From IMG/VR virus record IMGVR_UViG_3300050343_000182: a stretch of 64,000 nucleotides of DNA, one strand, 5' to 3'. Origin of the DNA: a virus. Both the position numbers and the translations under genes were made by a program. Position 1 is the first letter of the stretch, and every line of letters starts with the position of its first letter. This document shows positions 26,575 to 32,200 of this stretch, one piece after another. The notes beneath the pieces were generated by a model, which was given only the letters and a program-made list of their open reading frames with translations, had not been told where the DNA came from and ran no database searches.

Positions 26575-26993
26575 GCGATGAGATCCAATGGTCTCAAGAC
26601 ATGATGTTAGAAGTGACGCTTAAAGAACCCGACGATTTTCTCAAGGTAAGAGAAACCCTCACCCGTATTGGTGTTGCGTCTAGGAAAGAGCGCAAACTGT
26701 ATCAGTCTTGTCACATTCTCCACAAACGTGGTAAGTATTACGTCGTACACTTCAAGGAGTTGTTTGCGTTGGATGGTAAGCCAACAAACATCACTACGAA
26801 TGATATCGAACGTAGAAGTCGCATTGCGAAACTGTTATCAGACTGGGGTCTGATTGACATTGCTCGTGATGAAGAGGTAGGAGAGCTTGCTCCCCTTAAC
26901 CAAATCAAAGTTTTGTCCTTTAAGGATAAAGGTGAATGGTCTCTAGAGTCCAAATATAATATTGGGAAGAAAAAACAACCAGTTGAATCCTAA
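26571..26993 (+). CDS. regA: Translational repressor RegA
   Basis: PDDFLKVRETLTRIGVAS, LYQSCHILHKRGKYYVVHFKELF. Confidence 0.97.
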   Translation: MSDEIQWSQDMMLEVTLKEPDDFLKVRETLTRIGVASRKERKLYQSCHILHKRGKYYVVHFKELFALDGKPTNITTNDIERRSRIAKLLSDWGLIDIARDEEVGELAPLNQIKVLSFKDKGEWSLESKYNIGKKKQPVES

Positions 26994-27415
26994 TGTCACA
27001 AGAAACCACACCGAAGGAAGAACCTAAAAAGAAAGGTCTCCTAGGTAAAATCAAAGAAGCAGCTGATGACAAAGAAGAGCAGCTAGCTATTCTGTCTACT
27101 TTTGTTAGACTTGGTATTCTCGTTTGGAGTGGTGGTATACTCACTCTAGCGTATATTAAATTACCCCCTGCACTGGGTATTCCAGAGCAGAAACTCGATC
27201 CAACTTTCATAGCCAGCGTCTTCACAGGCGTTTTGGCTACTTTTGGTGTTCAGGCAGCAAAGAAAGCTGGAGAAGGTGGTGGTAATGGTGGTGGAATTAC
27301 CAAAGACCAGATGGAAAGATTGATTGAGAAAGCAGCACAGACTGCACCTTCACAGACTATTCGTCTTGAGCAGGGACCAATCAAAATTTCTACAGATGAA
27401 TCCTACAAACTGTAA
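26993..27415 (+). CDS. Two-TM membrane protein
   Basis: FVRLGILVWSGGILTLAYI and FIASVFTGVLATFGV. Confidence 0.75.
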   Translation: MSQETTPKEEPKKKGLLGKIKEAADDKEEQLAILSTFVRLGILVWSGGILTLAYIKLPPALGIPEQKLDPTFIASVFTGVLATFGVQAAKKAGEGGGNGGGITKDQMERLIEKAAQTAPSQTIRLEQGPIKISTDESYKL

Positions 27416-27420
27416 ATGTT

Positions 27421-27690
27421 ATGCAAAAACTAATTAATGTAATGGCAGTCCTATCATTTGTAGGTACTGCAGGTATCGTCGGAGGTGGCACCTATCTGTA
27501 TGTGCAGAAGGATGCAATTACCGCACAACTTATGGGTAAGGTTGCTGCAGCAGCGACAGAAGCAATCGCTGGTGCATTGCCTAGTATTGTGGATGGCGCA
27601 ATGCCTGAGTTACCTAAGGCAACAGGAGGTGCTGCTCTGCCTTTTGGTGAAGGTAAAGGTGGAGGAGTTCCTGGAATGAGATTGCCATGA
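27421..27690 (+). CDS. N-terminally anchored membrane protein
   Basis: LINVMAVLSFVGTAGIVGGGTYLY. Confidence 0.7.
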   Translation: MQKLINVMAVLSFVGTAGIVGGGTYLYVQKDAITAQLMGKVAAAATEAIAGALPSIVDGAMPELPKATGGAALPFGEGKGGGVPGMRLP

Positions 27691-28256
27691 ATAATAAACT
27701 AAAGATTGTAGCTGCTACAGTTGGTGGTTTATTTGCTGTGGCACATATTGGATTACTTGGGTATGTAGTCAACAGGCCGAAGCATCCTCAGGTCCCTACC
27801 ATTAATATCCCACGAGGCACACCTTACTCTTCTTACAAAATAGAAGCAGGTAAGGATGGTTACAGTATCGAATACAAAGCAAACGATCCTGCTATCCTTG
27901 AGTCTCAGAAATCCTTAGACCTCACTAAAAGTAAAAGTGGTTTCTTTGGTGGTAAGACATATGAAGATCGCACCGAGTTTCGTAGTGATCAATACACTAT
28001 GGATGGGACTAGAAATATTGGGGGTGTTGATAGCGAGGGAAAGTCTGCGAAAGACGTACAGTGTTTAATCGCGGACGCTGGAGCACGCTCACAAGGTGCA
28101 ATGGCAGGTAGTGCTATCGCTGCTGGTGTTGCTGTCCCTGCTGTAATGGGTATCCCATACGTTGGATGGCTAGCAGGTGGTTGGGCATTGCTTCTGGGTC
28201 AGAAGGCAGGCTCATCGGTTGGATCACAAGTGGGGTCAGTATTTAATGATTGCTAA
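27687..28256 (+). CDS. Membrane protein with C-terminal glycine-zipper hairpin
   Basis: N-terminal TM; GAMAGSAIAAGVAVPAVMGIPYVGWLAGGWALLLGQKAGSSVG. Confidence 0.75.
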   Translation: MNNKLKIVAATVGGLFAVAHIGLLGYVVNRPKHPQVPTINIPRGTPYSSYKIEAGKDGYSIEYKANDPAILESQKSLDLTKSKSGFFGGKTYEDRTEFRSDQYTMDGTRNIGGVDSEGKSAKDVQCLIADAGARSQGAMAGSAIAAGVAVPAVMGIPYVGWLAGGWALLLGQKAGSSVGSQVGSVFNDC

Positions 28257-28264
28257 TTTTAATT

Positions 28265-28756
28265 ATGAAAGAGTTGATTGTCCCTCAAACCCATGAGTAT
28301 CATGAGTTAAAGAGTCTGGTAACAGGGGAGTTTTTCCCCTGGATGCGGACTCAAAATCAGTTAGATAATTTTTACTTCTATAGTCATATCTTTCTAGAGA
28401 GACCTGAGATTGCTGGATACCCAGTGCAACAATGTGAATATCTACAGTTATTCCAGGTTGTCTTTAGTCAGATCTGTCAACATAACGAGGACATAGGATT
28501 CAACTACCTCTTAAGGATGAATGCAAATGCTATTGAGCCGTTGCCATCCAACCCTAAGATTGGTGCTGTGCATGAAGACCATACCTTCCCACATAAAAAC
28601 GTTATCATATATTTGACGGACGCTGGTGGTGATACCATCGCTGGCGATGAATCATTCCCTGCAAATGAAGACACTGCGTGCCTATTTGAAGGACCACATT
28701 GTCATGCTCTACCTGAGAAAGATCGTCGTGTTGTATTGGTGGTGACCTATGCCTGA
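28265..28756 (+). CDS. 2OG-Fe(II) oxygenase-like protein
   Basis: HED...IIYL...FEGPHCH...RRVVLVVTY. Confidence 0.7.
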   Translation: MKELIVPQTHEYHELKSLVTGEFFPWMRTQNQLDNFYFYSHIFLERPEIAGYPVQQCEYLQLFQVVFSQICQHNEDIGFNYLLRMNANAIEPLPSNPKIGAVHEDHTFPHKNVIIYLTDAGGDTIAGDESFPANEDTACLFEGPHCHALPEKDRRVVLVVTYA

Positions 28757-29531
28757 TATTCCTGATATTGATATCAATATTAGAAACATTGACATTGGGA
28801 ATGTTAGAATTTCTGAAGTCCGTGATTGGATTGTAAATCCTCCAAGAGTAATCCCACCCAATGTCCCTATCACAGAGCAGATAGGTGTGCCTATTGTAGA
28901 CATGCCTGGATGTGTAGAGGCACACGAATCAAAAAATAATTCTAATACTGTAGGTGTAGATGATGAGAATGGACTGATAACATACTGCGATGCTGGTATG
29001 CCAAACTTCAGTCCTCTTGACTACGACACTAACAAGATGGACTTTGAGTATAACTCTCCAGTCCCACCAGTAAACTCTCCTGAGCAACCAGAGGTTGACA
29101 CACCAGAGATCCCTGCAGGCACTGGTGCAGCGACTGCAAAGGTAGACTGTCCCACAGAGACACAAGCATTAAAAGAACCAGTCGGACACATCAAGGGTGA
29201 CAAGAAGGTCACTGAGTATCGACTGGTTGGTAAGGAGTGTATACAGGTAACAGATAAACTATCCATTCCTGATCAGGTTATAGGTAATCTTCCTAGTGCT
29301 GGTGCTGTTACTGCGACTGCATCGATTGCTGTCGTTGCAACGACTGCTGCACTGCTTTCAAAACCGCTTGCCGATCTAATTCTGAAAGTGGTGAAGCCGA
29401 CTGTGAAGAAGGTAATGAAGAAGATTGCTGCGATACGGGGGAAGACTCCTCCGATTGAGTCGTCAAAGGAGCGCCAAGATCAGCAGCGGATTCGCTCACA
29501 CGCGATTCGGAAACTGAAGGGGAAGGAATAG
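28749..29531 (+). CDS. Pro-rich protein with C-terminal TM and basic tail
   Basis: AVTATASIAVVATTAALL followed by a K-rich tail; Cys pairs. Confidence 0.7.
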   Translation: MPDIPDIDINIRNIDIGNVRISEVRDWIVNPPRVIPPNVPITEQIGVPIVDMPGCVEAHESKNNSNTVGVDDENGLITYCDAGMPNFSPLDYDTNKMDFEYNSPVPPVNSPEQPEVDTPEIPAGTGAATAKVDCPTETQALKEPVGHIKGDKKVTEYRLVGKECIQVTDKLSIPDQVIGNLPSAGAVTATASIAVVATTAALLSKPLADLILKVVKPTVKKVMKKIAAIRGKTPPIESSKERQDQQRIRSHAIRKLKGKE

Positions 29532-30306
29532 AGTGCCTGTGATCCTTTAATACATTTACATTAGTCACTTGGACATCTGCACAGATGGAAGCATACTGTG
29601 TGCCAGGTGCAAAGCGAATACCTTCCTTCATTAAATTTCCACAATTTTTTAGTCTCGCAATCTCAAAGTCGAGACGCTTGTTAGCAGTTAGTTGATTCAT
29701 CATGTTGATGTTAGCAGCAGCTGCTTCTTTGCATTGTGCTTGTAGTTTCTTATCTAATGGTGTTGACCATGTAGCAGAGAAACCTACGCCAATACTGTAG
29801 TTGTCTTTCTGTCCTGTCCTAGTGGGGACATGGTATAAAATCGAGCCAGGATTATCTAAAGATCCGTCTTCATCTAGATCACGCATATCATATACAGGAT
29901 CTTGATAGTAAGGCTCGTATGGTTTAGATGCAGACGCTGTGCCTGTCACATACGGGGTGAAATTCATAGTGGGTCCTTGACAACTAATACCATTCCCATA
30001 TGTATTAGTAATGTATGGTCCCTGCAAAACCTGAATAGCTTGGTTCGTCACTGAGCCAGAGCTATTCGCGATTGGAGATGCTGTTGCACTGACACCACCA
30101 ACCGTCTCAGCGTTAACTGGTGCTGTTATAAACAGTGCTATTACTGGGTAAAGATACTTGTAGTATCGGTGACGCTTGTCACCTCTGTTACCCTTTGGAT
30201 AATTGTCTGTTGAGTCAACCCTGGTCCGCTCAGAGTTTCCGTGAATTGAAACGCTGCGCCTGGTGTCGTTTGTGTAAACGCTGGTTTGTTGGTCGGCGTT
30301 GTCCAT
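29308..30306 (-). CDS. Exported protein (signal-peptide-like segment, beta region, coiled coil); start codon uncertain
   Basis: YLYPVIALFITAPVNA|ET, YSIGVGFSATWSTPL, QCKEAAA...FEIARLKNCG. Confidence 0.7.
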   Translation of the reverse strand: MDNADQQTSVYTNDTRRSVSIHGNSERTRVDSTDNYPKGNRGDKRHRYYKYLYPVIALFITAPVNAETVGGVSATASPIANSSGSVTNQAIQVLQGPYITNTYGNGISCQGPTMNFTPYVTGTASASKPYEPYYQDPVYDMRDLDEDGSLDNPGSILYHVPTRTGQKDNYSIGVGFSATWSTPLDKKLQAQCKEAAAANINMMNQLTANKRLDFEIARLKNCGNLMKEGIRFAPGTQYASICADVQVTNVNVLKDHRHSIPSPSVSESRVSESAADLGAPLTTQSEESSPVSQQSSSLPSSQSASPLSELDRQAVLKAVQQSLQRQQSMQSQ

Positions 30307-30587
30307 GAAGAAGTCACTCCATCAATAGTTACATTGTTTGTACCTGTACCAGGATTTAGGTTACCTGAAGCGGTAACTCCTGAGCCAGTCACAGAGTATT
30401 GATACCCTGTGTTATAGTCCATGCTGTTTATGGTTTCTGTTACCTTACTGGTCGTTTCCGTGTGGCTCGTCATTGACCCCTGGGTGAAGTTTGGGACCAC
30501 GGGGACCGCCTGGACAGGAGCAAGTATGACACTTGCACCCACCACAGACATCACAGACCATAAGATCGTCTTTCCAAAATGGGTCAT
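30141..30587 (-). CDS. Exported Thr/Ser-rich beta protein
   Basis: Signal peptide KTILWSVMSVVGASVILAPVQA|VPVVPNF. Confidence 0.75.
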   Translation of the reverse strand: MTHFGKTILWSVMSVVGASVILAPVQAVPVVPNFTQGSMTSHTETTSKVTETINSMDYNTGYQYSVTGSGVTASGNLNPGTGTNNVTIDGVTSSWTTPTNKPAFTQTTPGAAFQFTETLSGPGLTQQTIIQRVTEVTSVTDTTSIFTQ

Positions 30588-30598
30588 CCCTAACGCTC

Positions 30599-31102
30599 CT
30601 AGTCAATGACAGTGATCTCAGAGACGAATTGTCCCGTGGCAGATGTGCCAGCTCCACCAGCCGTTACCGTAAGAGCACCGCTACTCAAGACTGTACCTGC
30701 AAGGGTTGATGCCACACCAGCAGTGTATGAAGTCTGAGAGGAGTAGTTGCTTACATCACCTACAGTTGGTGCGCTAGTTGAAATAGCATCACCTTGAGTA
30801 AAGGACTGACTGTAGCTGAATGCATTGCCGTTTGTGTGCTGTGTTGCTGCGATAGTGCCAGGTGCCATAACACCTGAGGTGATCGTGCCTGCTGAGATAG
30901 TGCCAGCAGTCGTGCCATCAGTAGTGTTTATACCACTACCTGAGATCGCGTAAGAGTTTCCAACTCTGGAGACGGTAGACCTTGCTGCATCAACATTCAA
31001 CTGCACACTAGAAGCATGTTTAGTAACGAGTCCACCTGCTTGGGCGGCACCCGCTGTCATCAATAACATAACGATAGGGAGCAGAGATTTTCTCATTTCC
31101 AT
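30599..31102 (-). CDS. Exported Thr/Ser/Gly-rich beta protein
   Basis: Signal peptide MRKSLLPIVMLLMTAGAAQA|GG. Confidence 0.78.
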   Translation of the reverse strand: MEMRKSLLPIVMLLMTAGAAQAGGLVTKHASSVQLNVDAARSTVSRVGNSYAISGSGINTTDGTTAGTISAGTITSGVMAPGTIAATQHTNGNAFSYSQSFTQGDAISTSAPTVGDVSNYSSQTSYTAGVASTLAGTVLSSGALTVTAGGAGTSATGQFVSEITVID

Positions 31103-31122
31103 CGGTTATAAAGTGCTAGAGG

Positions 31123-31128
31123 TATTTA
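31123..31128 (-). promoter_or_regulatory. Late promoter for the reverse-strand trio
   Basis: Reverse complement cTAAATAc about 20 nt upstream of the 31102 ATG. Confidence 0.65.
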
Positions 31129-31172
31129 GCAAGATGAGTATGTTTACGGTAAACACTACTAGGTATGTTTAC

Positions 31173-31178
31173 TAAATA
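31173..31178 (+). promoter_or_regulatory. Late promoter for hsp20 (divergent)
   Basis: cTAAATAt. Confidence 0.65.
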
Positions 31179-31729: not shown

Positions 31730-31883
31730 CCTTATGATGGTGGGCACTCTGATTATGATTGGAGTGCTCCATAACCATGCTCACTTCTCCATGGAGAAGG
31801 ATGCAGATGCATATGTCAGGCAATGGTGTAGGTCTTCAGATCAAAACAAAGCGACTTGCAAAAGTTACAGCACCGATTATTGA
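31668..31883 (+). CDS. Small membrane protein
   Basis: [19 protein letters not shown]...[10 protein letters not shown]. Confidence 0.65.
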
Positions 31884-31912
31884 TATATACTGGGGTTAGT
31901 GACTTACGAAAC

Positions 31913-32200
31913 ATGAACGTAACTATTAAGCAGACAGACGGGACCGAAACAACTTTTGAATGTGACGGTGACACATATATTCTTGACGCAGCAGAAGAAG
32001 CAGGAGCAGATATGCCATACTCCTGCCGTGCAGGTGCCTGTAGCACTTGTGCAGGCAAGATTGAATCAGGCACAGTGAATCAGGAAGATCAATCATTCTT
32101 AGATGACGATCAGATCGCAGCAGGATTCCTACTCACTTGTGTATCGTATCCCACATCAGATCTGGTGATCCTAGCAGAGCAAGAAGAGTATCTTTATTGA
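31913..32200 (+). CDS. petF: Plant-type [2Fe-2S] ferredoxin
   Basis: [38 protein letters not shown]; likely start MNVTIK at 31913. Confidence 0.95.

Follow-up and report, generated by a model that had tools for sequence, protein, structure and literature searches.

What does a tightly packed group of membrane and exported proteins do between the phage genes regA and hsp20? The question is raised by positions 26993-31128 of IMG/VR virus record IMGVR_UViG_3300050343_000182, a stretch of 64,000 nucleotides (nt) that we call the window. The window belongs to a T4-like cyanomyovirus of the family Kyanoviridae, with S-RIM12 and Syn33 as its nearest records at ~80% nucleotide identity over parts of the region. 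The interval comprises eight open reading frames (ORFs), named g1 to g8 from left to right, and the minus-strand genes g6, g7 and g8 are referred to as the trio. It is well supported that the interval represents a conserved, co-inherited module of inner-membrane and Sec-exported phage proteins common to two cyanophage families. The core of the module is g1, g5, g7 and g6, to which myoviruses add g8, g2 and g3. We tentatively propose, with somewhat less than even confidence, that this module is a non-canonical late apparatus for lysis or for breaching the outer membrane.

Conservation of the block in two cyanophage families

Every ORF of the interval strongly matches a phage protein family, so g1-g8 are genes rather than chance ORFs. 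An earlier sequence-only reading of this DNA had described seven membrane or exported proteins here; all seven ORFs were recovered at the same coordinates with PHROG matches from E 1e-31 to 1e-145, but an eighth, non-membrane ORF inside the block (g4) had been missed. The same reading held the trio to be the only clearly coding minus-strand genes. This agrees with our results, as the other four minus-strand ORFs of at least 110 amino acids (aa) in the window match no PHROG, leaving the trio as the only minus-strand genes with family support.

The block corresponds to the near-core Kyanoviridae set T4-GC218/414/219/234-237 in the numbering of Sullivan et al. 2010. In that study T4-GC218, 219, 234, 235 and 237 are present in 15 of 16 cyanomyoviruses, T4-GC236 is present in fewer, and the S-PM2 column is empty. 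Inspection of S-PM2 reveals that regA (95618-96043) runs directly into hsp20 (96194-96604), with the whole block missing together. The block genes of P-SSM2 and P-HM2 also stay together, although they are tens of kilobases away from regA; in P-HM2, hli genes adjoin the block. For a broader view we retrieved 80 IMG/VR contigs with g7 as the myovirus-type locus set. In all 80, g8, g7 and g6 converge on g5, and g2, g1 and usually g3 lie upstream of g5. Within the phage collection g1 matches 443 records and g6 matches 444, all of them cyanophages and with the same breakdown by name, and g7 and g8 match 414 and 404, respectively. With more than 7,600 clusters at 90% identity in the g6 family, the block is among the most widespread uncharacterised cyanophage gene sets. 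The block genes therefore co-occur almost perfectly in cyanophages, and the term island, used in the sequence-only reading, does not fit a block that is conserved and near-core in Kyanoviridae rather than variable. Among cyanobacteria the g6 family was found in 1 of 301 sampled genomes and in 0 of 214 good-quality genomes, where the single positive is a 77%-complete assembly sharing phage DNA with the window.

The g6 family also matches T7-like cyanopodoviruses. In P-SSP10 and KBS-P-1A, a single strand carries a tail fibre gene, a gene for a Pro-rich protein with a C-terminal transmembrane (TM) segment and a basic tail, a DUF6450 gene, a DUF6322 gene and a g6-like gene that overlaps the end of the DUF6322 gene, followed by genes for a small hydrophobic protein, the small terminase and, later, the large terminase. 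The order of this cassette is invariant in 80 of 80 podovirus-type contigs wherever the contig reaches far enough. PHROG models place the podovirus DUF6450, DUF6322 and g6-like proteins in the same families as g1, g7 and g6; no podovirus counterpart of g8 was found. The podovirus Pro-rich protein has the architecture of g5 and has an IPP(N/S) motif in common with it. The two show no significant BLASTP similarity, and their weak profile match covers the TM region only (hhalign probability 50%, E 1.7e-4). They are architectural counterparts and, judging from these sequence features, possibly homologues.

The core neighbourhood also survives rearrangement. In locus L170 the DUF6450, DUF6322 and g6 genes are adjacent, beside T7-type tail genes, and in L171 a single strand bears DUF6450, DUF6322, DUF6322 and g6 genes in that order, accompanied by a convergent gene of 267 aa and by dam. 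That is to say, the functional coupling of DUF6450, DUF6322 and g6 is well evidenced, because the genes remain neighbours when their surroundings change. Two further features of the podovirus loci were observed. The podovirus protein is already named 'Gp165' in databases, after Syn9, which hints at the cross-family link. The small hydrophobic protein directly after the cassette (phrog_2738; 53-54 aa) is encoded at 4763-4927 of L003 (P-SSP10) and 3294-3455 of L004 (KBS-P-1A), and may represent either an additional membrane component or a candidate holin.

Given late expression and a podovirus cassette that adjoins tail-fibre and terminase genes, the proteins might be virion or assembly components that proteomics has missed. 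We find this barely credible. The virion proteome table covering S-SM1, Syn9 and S-PM2 (PMC3037559, Table S8) lists none of T4-GC218, 219 and 234-237, and the cleavable signal peptides of the trio are incompatible with virion assembly in the cytoplasm. The evidence thus speaks against plain virion tail components, the outcome that the sequence-only reading had named as fatal to its proposal.

Table 1. Genes of the block, flanking late-type motifs and petF, in window coordinates.
Feature	Position	Strand	Description
g1	26993-27415	+	140 aa; two TM segments; DUF6450; T4-GC218; phrog_2714
g2	27421-27690	+	89 aa; N-terminal anchor, Gly/Ala-rich; T4-GC414; phrog_568
g3	27687-28256	+	189 aa; N-terminal anchor and Gly-rich hydrophobic hairpin; T4-GC219; phrog_605
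g4	28250-28756	+	168 aa; soluble; phrog_274
g5	28749-29531	+	260 aa; Pro-rich, C-terminal TM segment; T4-GC234; phrog_570
g6	29308-30306	-	332 aa; exported, 'Gp165-like'; T4-GC235; phrog_848/1755
g7	30141-30587	-	148 aa; exported Thr-rich beta protein; DUF6322; T4-GC236; phrog_650
g8	30599-31102	-	167 aa; exported, Thr/Ser/Ala/Gly-rich; T4-GC237; phrog_564
Late-type motif CTAAATA	31123-31129	-	20 nt upstream of the g8 ATG
Divergent late-type CTAAATA	31172-31178	+	56 nt upstream of hsp20; right-hand border of the block
petF	31856-32200		right-hand neighbour

The left-hand neighbours of the interval are dam, gp62 and regA, and the right-hand neighbours are hsp20, petF and gp43 (Table 1). In some S-RIM12 isolates pstS directly follows hsp20 (L002, 6894-7859), which is not so in the window.

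Export signals and overlapping frames of the trio

Signal peptides of the trio were judged by comparison of 93 (g7), 63 (g8) and 67 (g6) distinct sequences. Residue -1 is Ala in 87, 63 and 65 of these, respectively, and A, V, S or T occupies position -3 with few exceptions. Ahead of the cleavage site 18 residues are hypervariable, and the 12 behind it are nearly fixed, with 88 distinct presequences against 11 mature starts in g7 and 63 against 8 in g6. Since variable presequences give way to fixed mature starts with Ala at -1, the leaders are expected to be removed by signal peptidase I. This signature agrees with the Sec-type AxA signal peptides that the sequence-only reading ascribed to all three proteins and speaks against its own caveat, that the leaders might not function. 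In g7 the signal peptide spans residues 1-27, and the mature protein has an invariant N-terminus (PNFTQGSM) and an equally invariant S-x-F-x-Q at its C-terminus (alignment A2). The g8 signal peptide ends AQA, before GG. For g6 the proposed signal peptide is also present, but it follows a basic extension (residues 1 to ~50) that is encoded inside g7 and had gone unremarked; the signal-peptide core (residues 52-66) ends VNA, before E, and its hydrophobic stretch of ~14 residues is followed by a conserved AxA site. Distant g6 relatives start with textbook MKK-hydrophobic-AxA leaders.

The g7 protein matches Pfam DUF6322 (E 8.5e-40, 135.8 bits against a gathering cut-off of 30.6). The g8 protein matches its PHROG at E 8e-74 and gave no hit in the Pfam scan, but its homologues carry a precomputed PF19847 (DUF6322) match and g8 itself aligns weakly to g7 (E 3e-4), which argues that g8 is a diverged paralogue of g7. 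Neither protein contains Cys, and g6 has none before residue 109, which is 43 residues past the AxA site, so no trio protein can be a lipoprotein of the outer-membrane spanin (o-spanin) type. Beyond its leader g6 consists of a conserved disordered SGSVTNQ segment, a beta-sheet, a 42-residue helix and an unconserved Ser/Gln-rich tail, with Cys 109, 192, 222 and 242 invariant or nearly so. Compared with an inner-membrane spanin (i-spanin), g6 has a Cys-flanked 42-residue helix, but its short hydrophobic core is followed by an AxA site and it has no Pfam Phage_lysis match. The trio proteins are not classical outer-membrane beta-barrels either: no outer-membrane protein family matched at E up to 1 and there is no C-terminal aromatic beta-signal, the termini of g8 and g7 reading ...ITVID and ...SIFTQ.

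The AlphaFold model of the g6 mature domain (alignment A1, 47 sequences) reaches a predicted local distance difference test score (pLDDT) of 79. In this model the first 22 residues are disordered, followed by a beta-sheet at residues 35-117 and the long helix at residues 120-161. The disordered stretch includes SGSVTNQ, the most conserved motif of the protein, and conservation of a segment that is disordered in the monomer model suggests a partner. The model reproduces the amphipathic strand pair and, as a Cys-flanked helix, the Cys-flanked coiled coil that had been described from the letters alone. Foldseek returned nothing in the PDB at E <=0.001 for g6, and VIA-align wide returned a single long helix only (Z <=5.2). 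The g7 model (alignment A2) is of low confidence (pLDDT 56). Its better-scored N- and C-terminal strands pair as one hairpin of ~33 residues per strand, and VIA-align wide lists nine chains at Z >=2, all at <=3.9 and not significant for a low-confidence model. These weak neighbours include stem hairpins of pore-forming toxins, flagellar MS-ring proteins, the phi29 collar/tail-axis complex and two spore-appendage fibres. The resemblance of the modelled long hairpins of g7 and g6 to the stems of oligomeric pores and rings may serve as a lead and is not a finding. Searches of BFVD and the ESM Atlas recovered the proteins' own family only, profile searches of alignments A1, A2 and A3 against PDB sequences recovered nothing, and NCBIfam and PADLOC gave no meaningful matches. 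For curli and Fap, there was no Pfam match and no fold match for g6.

Weak long-hairpin leads of this kind, together with the 'OMP1 protein' label that g8 bears in some records (many in all), could point to a phage-encoded outer-membrane channel for nutrient uptake, which would increase the influx of solutes into the infected cell as a companion to the phage pstS that adjoins hsp20 in S-RIM12. Such a channel appears highly improbable to us. The label is a record annotation only, with no traceable evidence behind it; the proteins match no porin family, lack the terminal aromatic beta-signal and are too short for a classical barrel; and late timing would leave little time for a benefit from uptake.

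The leaders themselves raise a different destination, as cyanobacterial Sec leaders are known to serve both the periplasm and the thylakoid lumen. The trio could then be auxiliary proteins sent to the lumen, with the membrane proteins in thylakoid membranes, altering the photosynthetic membranes, and the window and its relatives are indeed rich in photosynthesis genes, among them petF here and hli next to the P-HM2 block. Several observations make this very unlikely. Photosynthetic auxiliary genes are usually early or middle, in contrast to the mostly late expression of the block; no host homologue and no cofactor motifs were found; Thr/Ser/Gly-rich hairpin proteins are unlike lumenal photosynthetic proteins; and the podovirus copy sits among late structural genes.

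A distinctive property of the trio is the overlap between g7 and g6. The g6 ATG sits 166 nt inside g7, is the only canonical g6 start in T4-like phages and is preceded by GGAG 10 nt upstream. In the dual-coding stretch (30141-30306) the last 55 codons of g7 are also the first 55 of g6 in a different reading frame, where the g6 frame is the g7 frame slid back one base and g6 codon position 1 is g7 position 3. Stop avoidance was measured in 74 distinct g7 genes, in which a T at g7 codon position 3 before an AA/AG/GA codon creates a stop in the g6 frame. Outside the overlap, 354 of 1357 contexts (26%) carry the stop-creating T, versus 2 of 767 (0.26%) inside it, a ~100-fold avoidance. With about ten such contexts per gene in the overlap, a g6 frame free of selection would seldom escape a stop. 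The actual frame runs through in 73 of the 74 sequences, and all lineages but one have the conserved ATG, a pattern which indicates that the overlap is kept open by selection. The exception is L020, where g6 is displaced from g7 and has an ordinary short leader. Because the frame is maintained elsewhere yet the L020 g6 is a separate gene with such a leader, the g6 extension appears to be translated but dispensable.

A programmed frameshift producing a g7-g6 fusion was set aside, given the conserved ATG and GGAG of g6 and its separate existence in L020. Four representatives of 50%-identity clusters (P0147, P0171, P0197 and P0253) read as in-frame fusions of a g7-like N-terminus to the g6 extension; frameshifts in the assemblies may account for them, or they may hint at genuine products of fusion or frameshifting. 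The placement of a second gene in another frame matches the gene architecture of two-component spanins, although such an overlap is not enough to identify a gene pair as spanins.

The 3' end of g6 in turn overlaps that of g5, in a tail-to-tail arrangement of 224 nt (29308-29531). An overlap of this type occurs in 65 of 71 loci with a median of 128 nt, in classes of ~110-150 nt and ~206-266 nt. The g6 tail past ~residue 284 is unconserved and is probably mere antisense of the conserved g5 TM segment and basic tail. No terminator-like site lies inside the overlap; the nearest candidate, at 29713-29725 (+), is ~180 nt past the g5 stop and within g6. Convergent transcription may couple the expression of g5 and g6.

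Plus-strand proteins and expression timing

Hydropathy analysis agrees with the earlier description of four plus-strand membrane proteins, that is, one with two TM segments (g1), one N-anchored (g2), one N-anchored with a hairpin (g3) and one Pro-rich with a C-terminal TM segment (g5). The g1 protein matches Pfam DUF6450 (E 1.4e-35, 121.4 bits against a gathering cut-off of 25) and its PHROG at E 1.2e-73. Its TM segments (residues 31-55 and 71-89) are helices rich in Gly, Ser, Thr and Ala, and both termini are charged. The size, paired TM segments and charged termini of g1 fit a holin, and its P-HM2 homologue is late; no holin family matched. The g1 ATG overlaps the regA stop codon as TAATG (26990-26995), so g1 appears to be translationally coupled to the regA operon in this phage.

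The g5 protein contains 10% Pro and comprises an acidic Pro-rich N-terminal domain with invariant C55, C80, C134 and C164, a TM segment at residues 185-211 and a basic C-terminal tail, for which an N-out, C-in topology is predicted. It is not a unimolecular spanin (u-spanin) of the T1 gp11 type, as its C-terminal TM segment is paired with a hydrophilic N-terminus that has neither leader nor lipobox. The g2 gene is found in most of the 80 myovirus-type loci and bears the database label 'plasmid stability', for which there is no evidence. The g3 protein (PHROG match at E 8.6e-92), whose Gly-rich hydrophobic hairpin spans residues 138-170, is the most often missing, accessory member of the block, absent from L007, L008, L022 and L023 among others. 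Hydropathy finds no TM or hydrophobic segment in g4 (PHROG match at E 9e-23). This gene occupies its position in only 3 of 80 related loci (L012, L033 and L034) and is not so placed in Syn33; its rarity marks it as an insertion rather than a member of the conserved module. The phrog_274 label of g4 is 'DNA endonuclease V', and its H-x-D...H pattern is reminiscent of 2OG-Fe(II) oxygenases.

T4-type late promoters have the consensus TATAAATA. The window contains 16 copies of CTAAATA where 6.8 are expected; 15 of them are on the plus strand, and 9 of these 15 lie 15-56 nt before an ORF start. By its sequence, the copy upstream of g8 fits a T4-type (gp55-type) late promoter. It contains the minus-strand TAAATA (31123-31128) to which the sequence-only reading drew attention, and the motif is conserved ahead of g8 homologues: in 59 of 62 distinct upstream regions (C/A)TAAATA lies at most 40 nt from the called g8 start (mostly 19-39 nt), in flanks that are otherwise unalignable. 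For at least one of the three exceptions, the upstream start was probably miscalled. The 132-nt intergenic region between g8 and hsp20 carries two back-to-back CTAAATA motifs, each facing one gene. Plus-strand block genes have no late motif of their own in this window, where the late motif serves the minus-strand trio only.

Experimental timing was taken from the P-HM2 transcriptome (Table S2, PMC5082946) for homologues of the window genes. PHM2_191 (g1), PHM2_192 (g2), PHM2_194 (g5) and PHM2_197 (g8) are late, PHM2_196 (g7) is late in the light and middle in the dark, and PHM2_195 (g6) is middle. Block homologues are thus mostly late-expressed in P-HM2.

Timing bears on two further explanations. 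Superinfection exclusion or receptor masking would have the exported proteins coat or modify the outer membrane or periplasm, such that the DNA entry of other phages is blocked or progeny are kept off the debris of lysed cells. Proteins that are exported or membrane-bound and undetected in virions, a module restricted to phages of one host group and its dispensability in S-PM2, as for an accessory fitness function, all agree with such a role. The block also resembles T4 Imm/Sp and T5 Llp, which are likewise small membrane or exported proteins made by a phage and acting on the envelope of its host cell. Those, however, are early single proteins, with the exclusion genes imm and sp of T4 among them, whereas the block is a mostly late multi-gene module of two families without homology to them. 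There is also no known receptor common to myoviruses and podoviruses, which argues against receptor-specific masking, and no PADLOC or other family match. We therefore regard exclusion or masking as unlikely.

Control of lysis timing draws on the same localisation and timing evidence as a role in lysis itself. Here the secreted proteins would behave as a periplasmic antiholin or sensor in the manner of T4 RI, with the membrane proteins as holin-side partners, and the module would set the time of lysis without carrying it out. Dispensability in S-PM2 is easier to reconcile with a regulator than with an essential effector. Known antiholins nonetheless need less than three abundant, beta-rich exported proteins of which two are paralogues; no similarity to RI or RIII was found in Pfam or PHROG; and lysis inhibition is, as far as we know, undescribed for these phages. 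We consider such a regulator quite unlikely.

A proposed role in lysis

In the lysis apparatus that we propose, the small two-TM DUF6450 protein (g1) would be the holin-like inner-membrane component and g5 an inner-membrane anchor reaching into the periplasm. We envisage the g7/g8 and g6 products as beta-hairpin and coiled-coil proteins, stabilised by disulfides, that would form oligomers in the periplasm or outer membrane; such oligomers would permeabilise or rupture the outer membrane, replacing the lipoprotein o-spanin. A more specific version, in which both phage families breach the envelope with a pinholin-like DUF6450 protein, a g5 of reverse topology and a non-lipoprotein DUF6322/Gp165-like oligomer standing in for spanins, is doubtful.

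Several lines of evidence favour lysis. The timing is mostly late and the proteins are exported. Conservation of the module across phage families argues for a target in the host envelope rather than a phage-specific one. In T7, the slot between tail fibre and terminase holds the holin gene 17.5, with spanin genes 18.5/18.7 nearby, and the podovirus cassette occupies this holin-gene position. The two-frame g7/g6 pair resembles spanin gene pairs. Finally, neither lysozyme nor Rz genes could be recognised in five complete genomes that carry the module; the nearest virus record (G002), a 31%-complete fragment, is uninformative in this respect. Amidase_2 occurs only inside a ~925-aa ORF of Syn33 (L168, 10663-10980) and S-RIM12 (L169, 10422-10739), the product of which is probably a virion-associated cell-wall hydrolase, and is found in none of P-HM2, P-SSP10 and KBS-P-1A.

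Comparison with known systems sharpens the proposal. Like the two-component spanins (lambda Rz/Rz1, T7 gp18.5/18.7, T4 PseT.3/PseT.2), these are late phage envelope genes in which the downstream gene starts inside the upstream one; g6 is a putatively periplasmic protein with a long helix and conserved Cys, the stretch between tail fibre and terminase houses the podovirus cassette as it does the spanin genes of T7, and the module would likewise complete the lysis of a diderm host. In contrast to those spanins, there is no sequence or fold match and there are extra members (g8 and g5), g7 is all-beta with a cleavable leader and not a coiled-coil membrane protein of type II, and g6 is large and has no lipobox. 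The g1 protein is akin to class II holins and pinholins (phage 21 S21-68) in being small, with two Gly/Ala/Ser/Thr-rich TM helices bearing a small-xxx-small face and charged termini, late in P-HM2 and linked to exported proteins. It differs from them in matching no holin family, having no adjacent endolysin and, in this window, being coupled to regA with no late promoter of its own. Like the unimolecular spanin T1 gp11, g5 is anchored by a C-terminal TM segment and has an extended, probably periplasmic domain, but it lacks the defining N-terminal lipoprotein signal. The models of g7 and g6 recall beta-barrel pore formers (aerolysin, lysenin and anthrax PA stems, and phi29 tail-knob hairpins) in their very long Thr/Ser-rich hairpins, which as modelled would make sense only in an oligomer. 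This likeness is not significant (Foldseek E >=0.16; VIA Z <=3.9), involves a low-confidence g7 model and extends to no common head domains.

A number of points weigh against a role in lysis. S-PM2 lyses its host without the block, which must therefore be dispensable or replaceable. No endolysin adjoins the block, and the absence of Phage_lysozyme and Rz matches from the five complete genomes comes from a search of only three lysis Pfam families. The exported proteins have neither lipobox nor C-terminal aromatic beta-signal, and g7 and g8 are Cys-free. In this window no plus-strand gene of the block has its own late motif, g1 is coupled to regA, and the g6 homologue is middle in P-HM2. Cyanobacterial Sec leaders can also target the thylakoid lumen. 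No sequence similarity to holin families was found in Pfam, PHROG or NCBIfam, and no sequence or fold link to CsgG/Fap, spanins, porins or pore-forming toxins was found with Pfam or with the models of g6 and, at low confidence, g7. The T7 positional argument is an analogy, not homology. The phage-encoded cell-envelope machine of the sequence-only reading accordingly stands as a co-occurring, envelope-directed set of proteins, without a link to any of the machines named for it (CsgG/Fap, spanins and pores).

The gene families of the block are catalogued but uncharacterised, and literature searches on DUF6322, DUF6450, cyanophage 'OMP1' and cyanophage spanins found nothing relevant. To our knowledge, neither the four-gene cross-family cassette and the selection-maintained g7/g6 overlap nor the g7/g8 paralogy and the all-or-none behaviour of the block have been described. 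As far as we know, and consistent with our limited searches, the lysis genes of Prochlorococcus and Synechococcus phages have never been identified.

Phages of Prochlorococcus and Synechococcus kill a large share of the ocean's primary producers. Cross-family sharing, mostly late expression, an exported trio and no detection in virions are the properties expected of end-game proteins that act on the envelope, and four core genes, with S-PM2 as a control for dispensability, make the question of lysis experimentally approachable. In g7 and g6, moreover, selection for an overlapping reading frame can be seen cleanly and quantified. Should the true function instead be exclusion or thylakoid remodelling, the block would still be a cross-family host-interaction system without a characterised relative.

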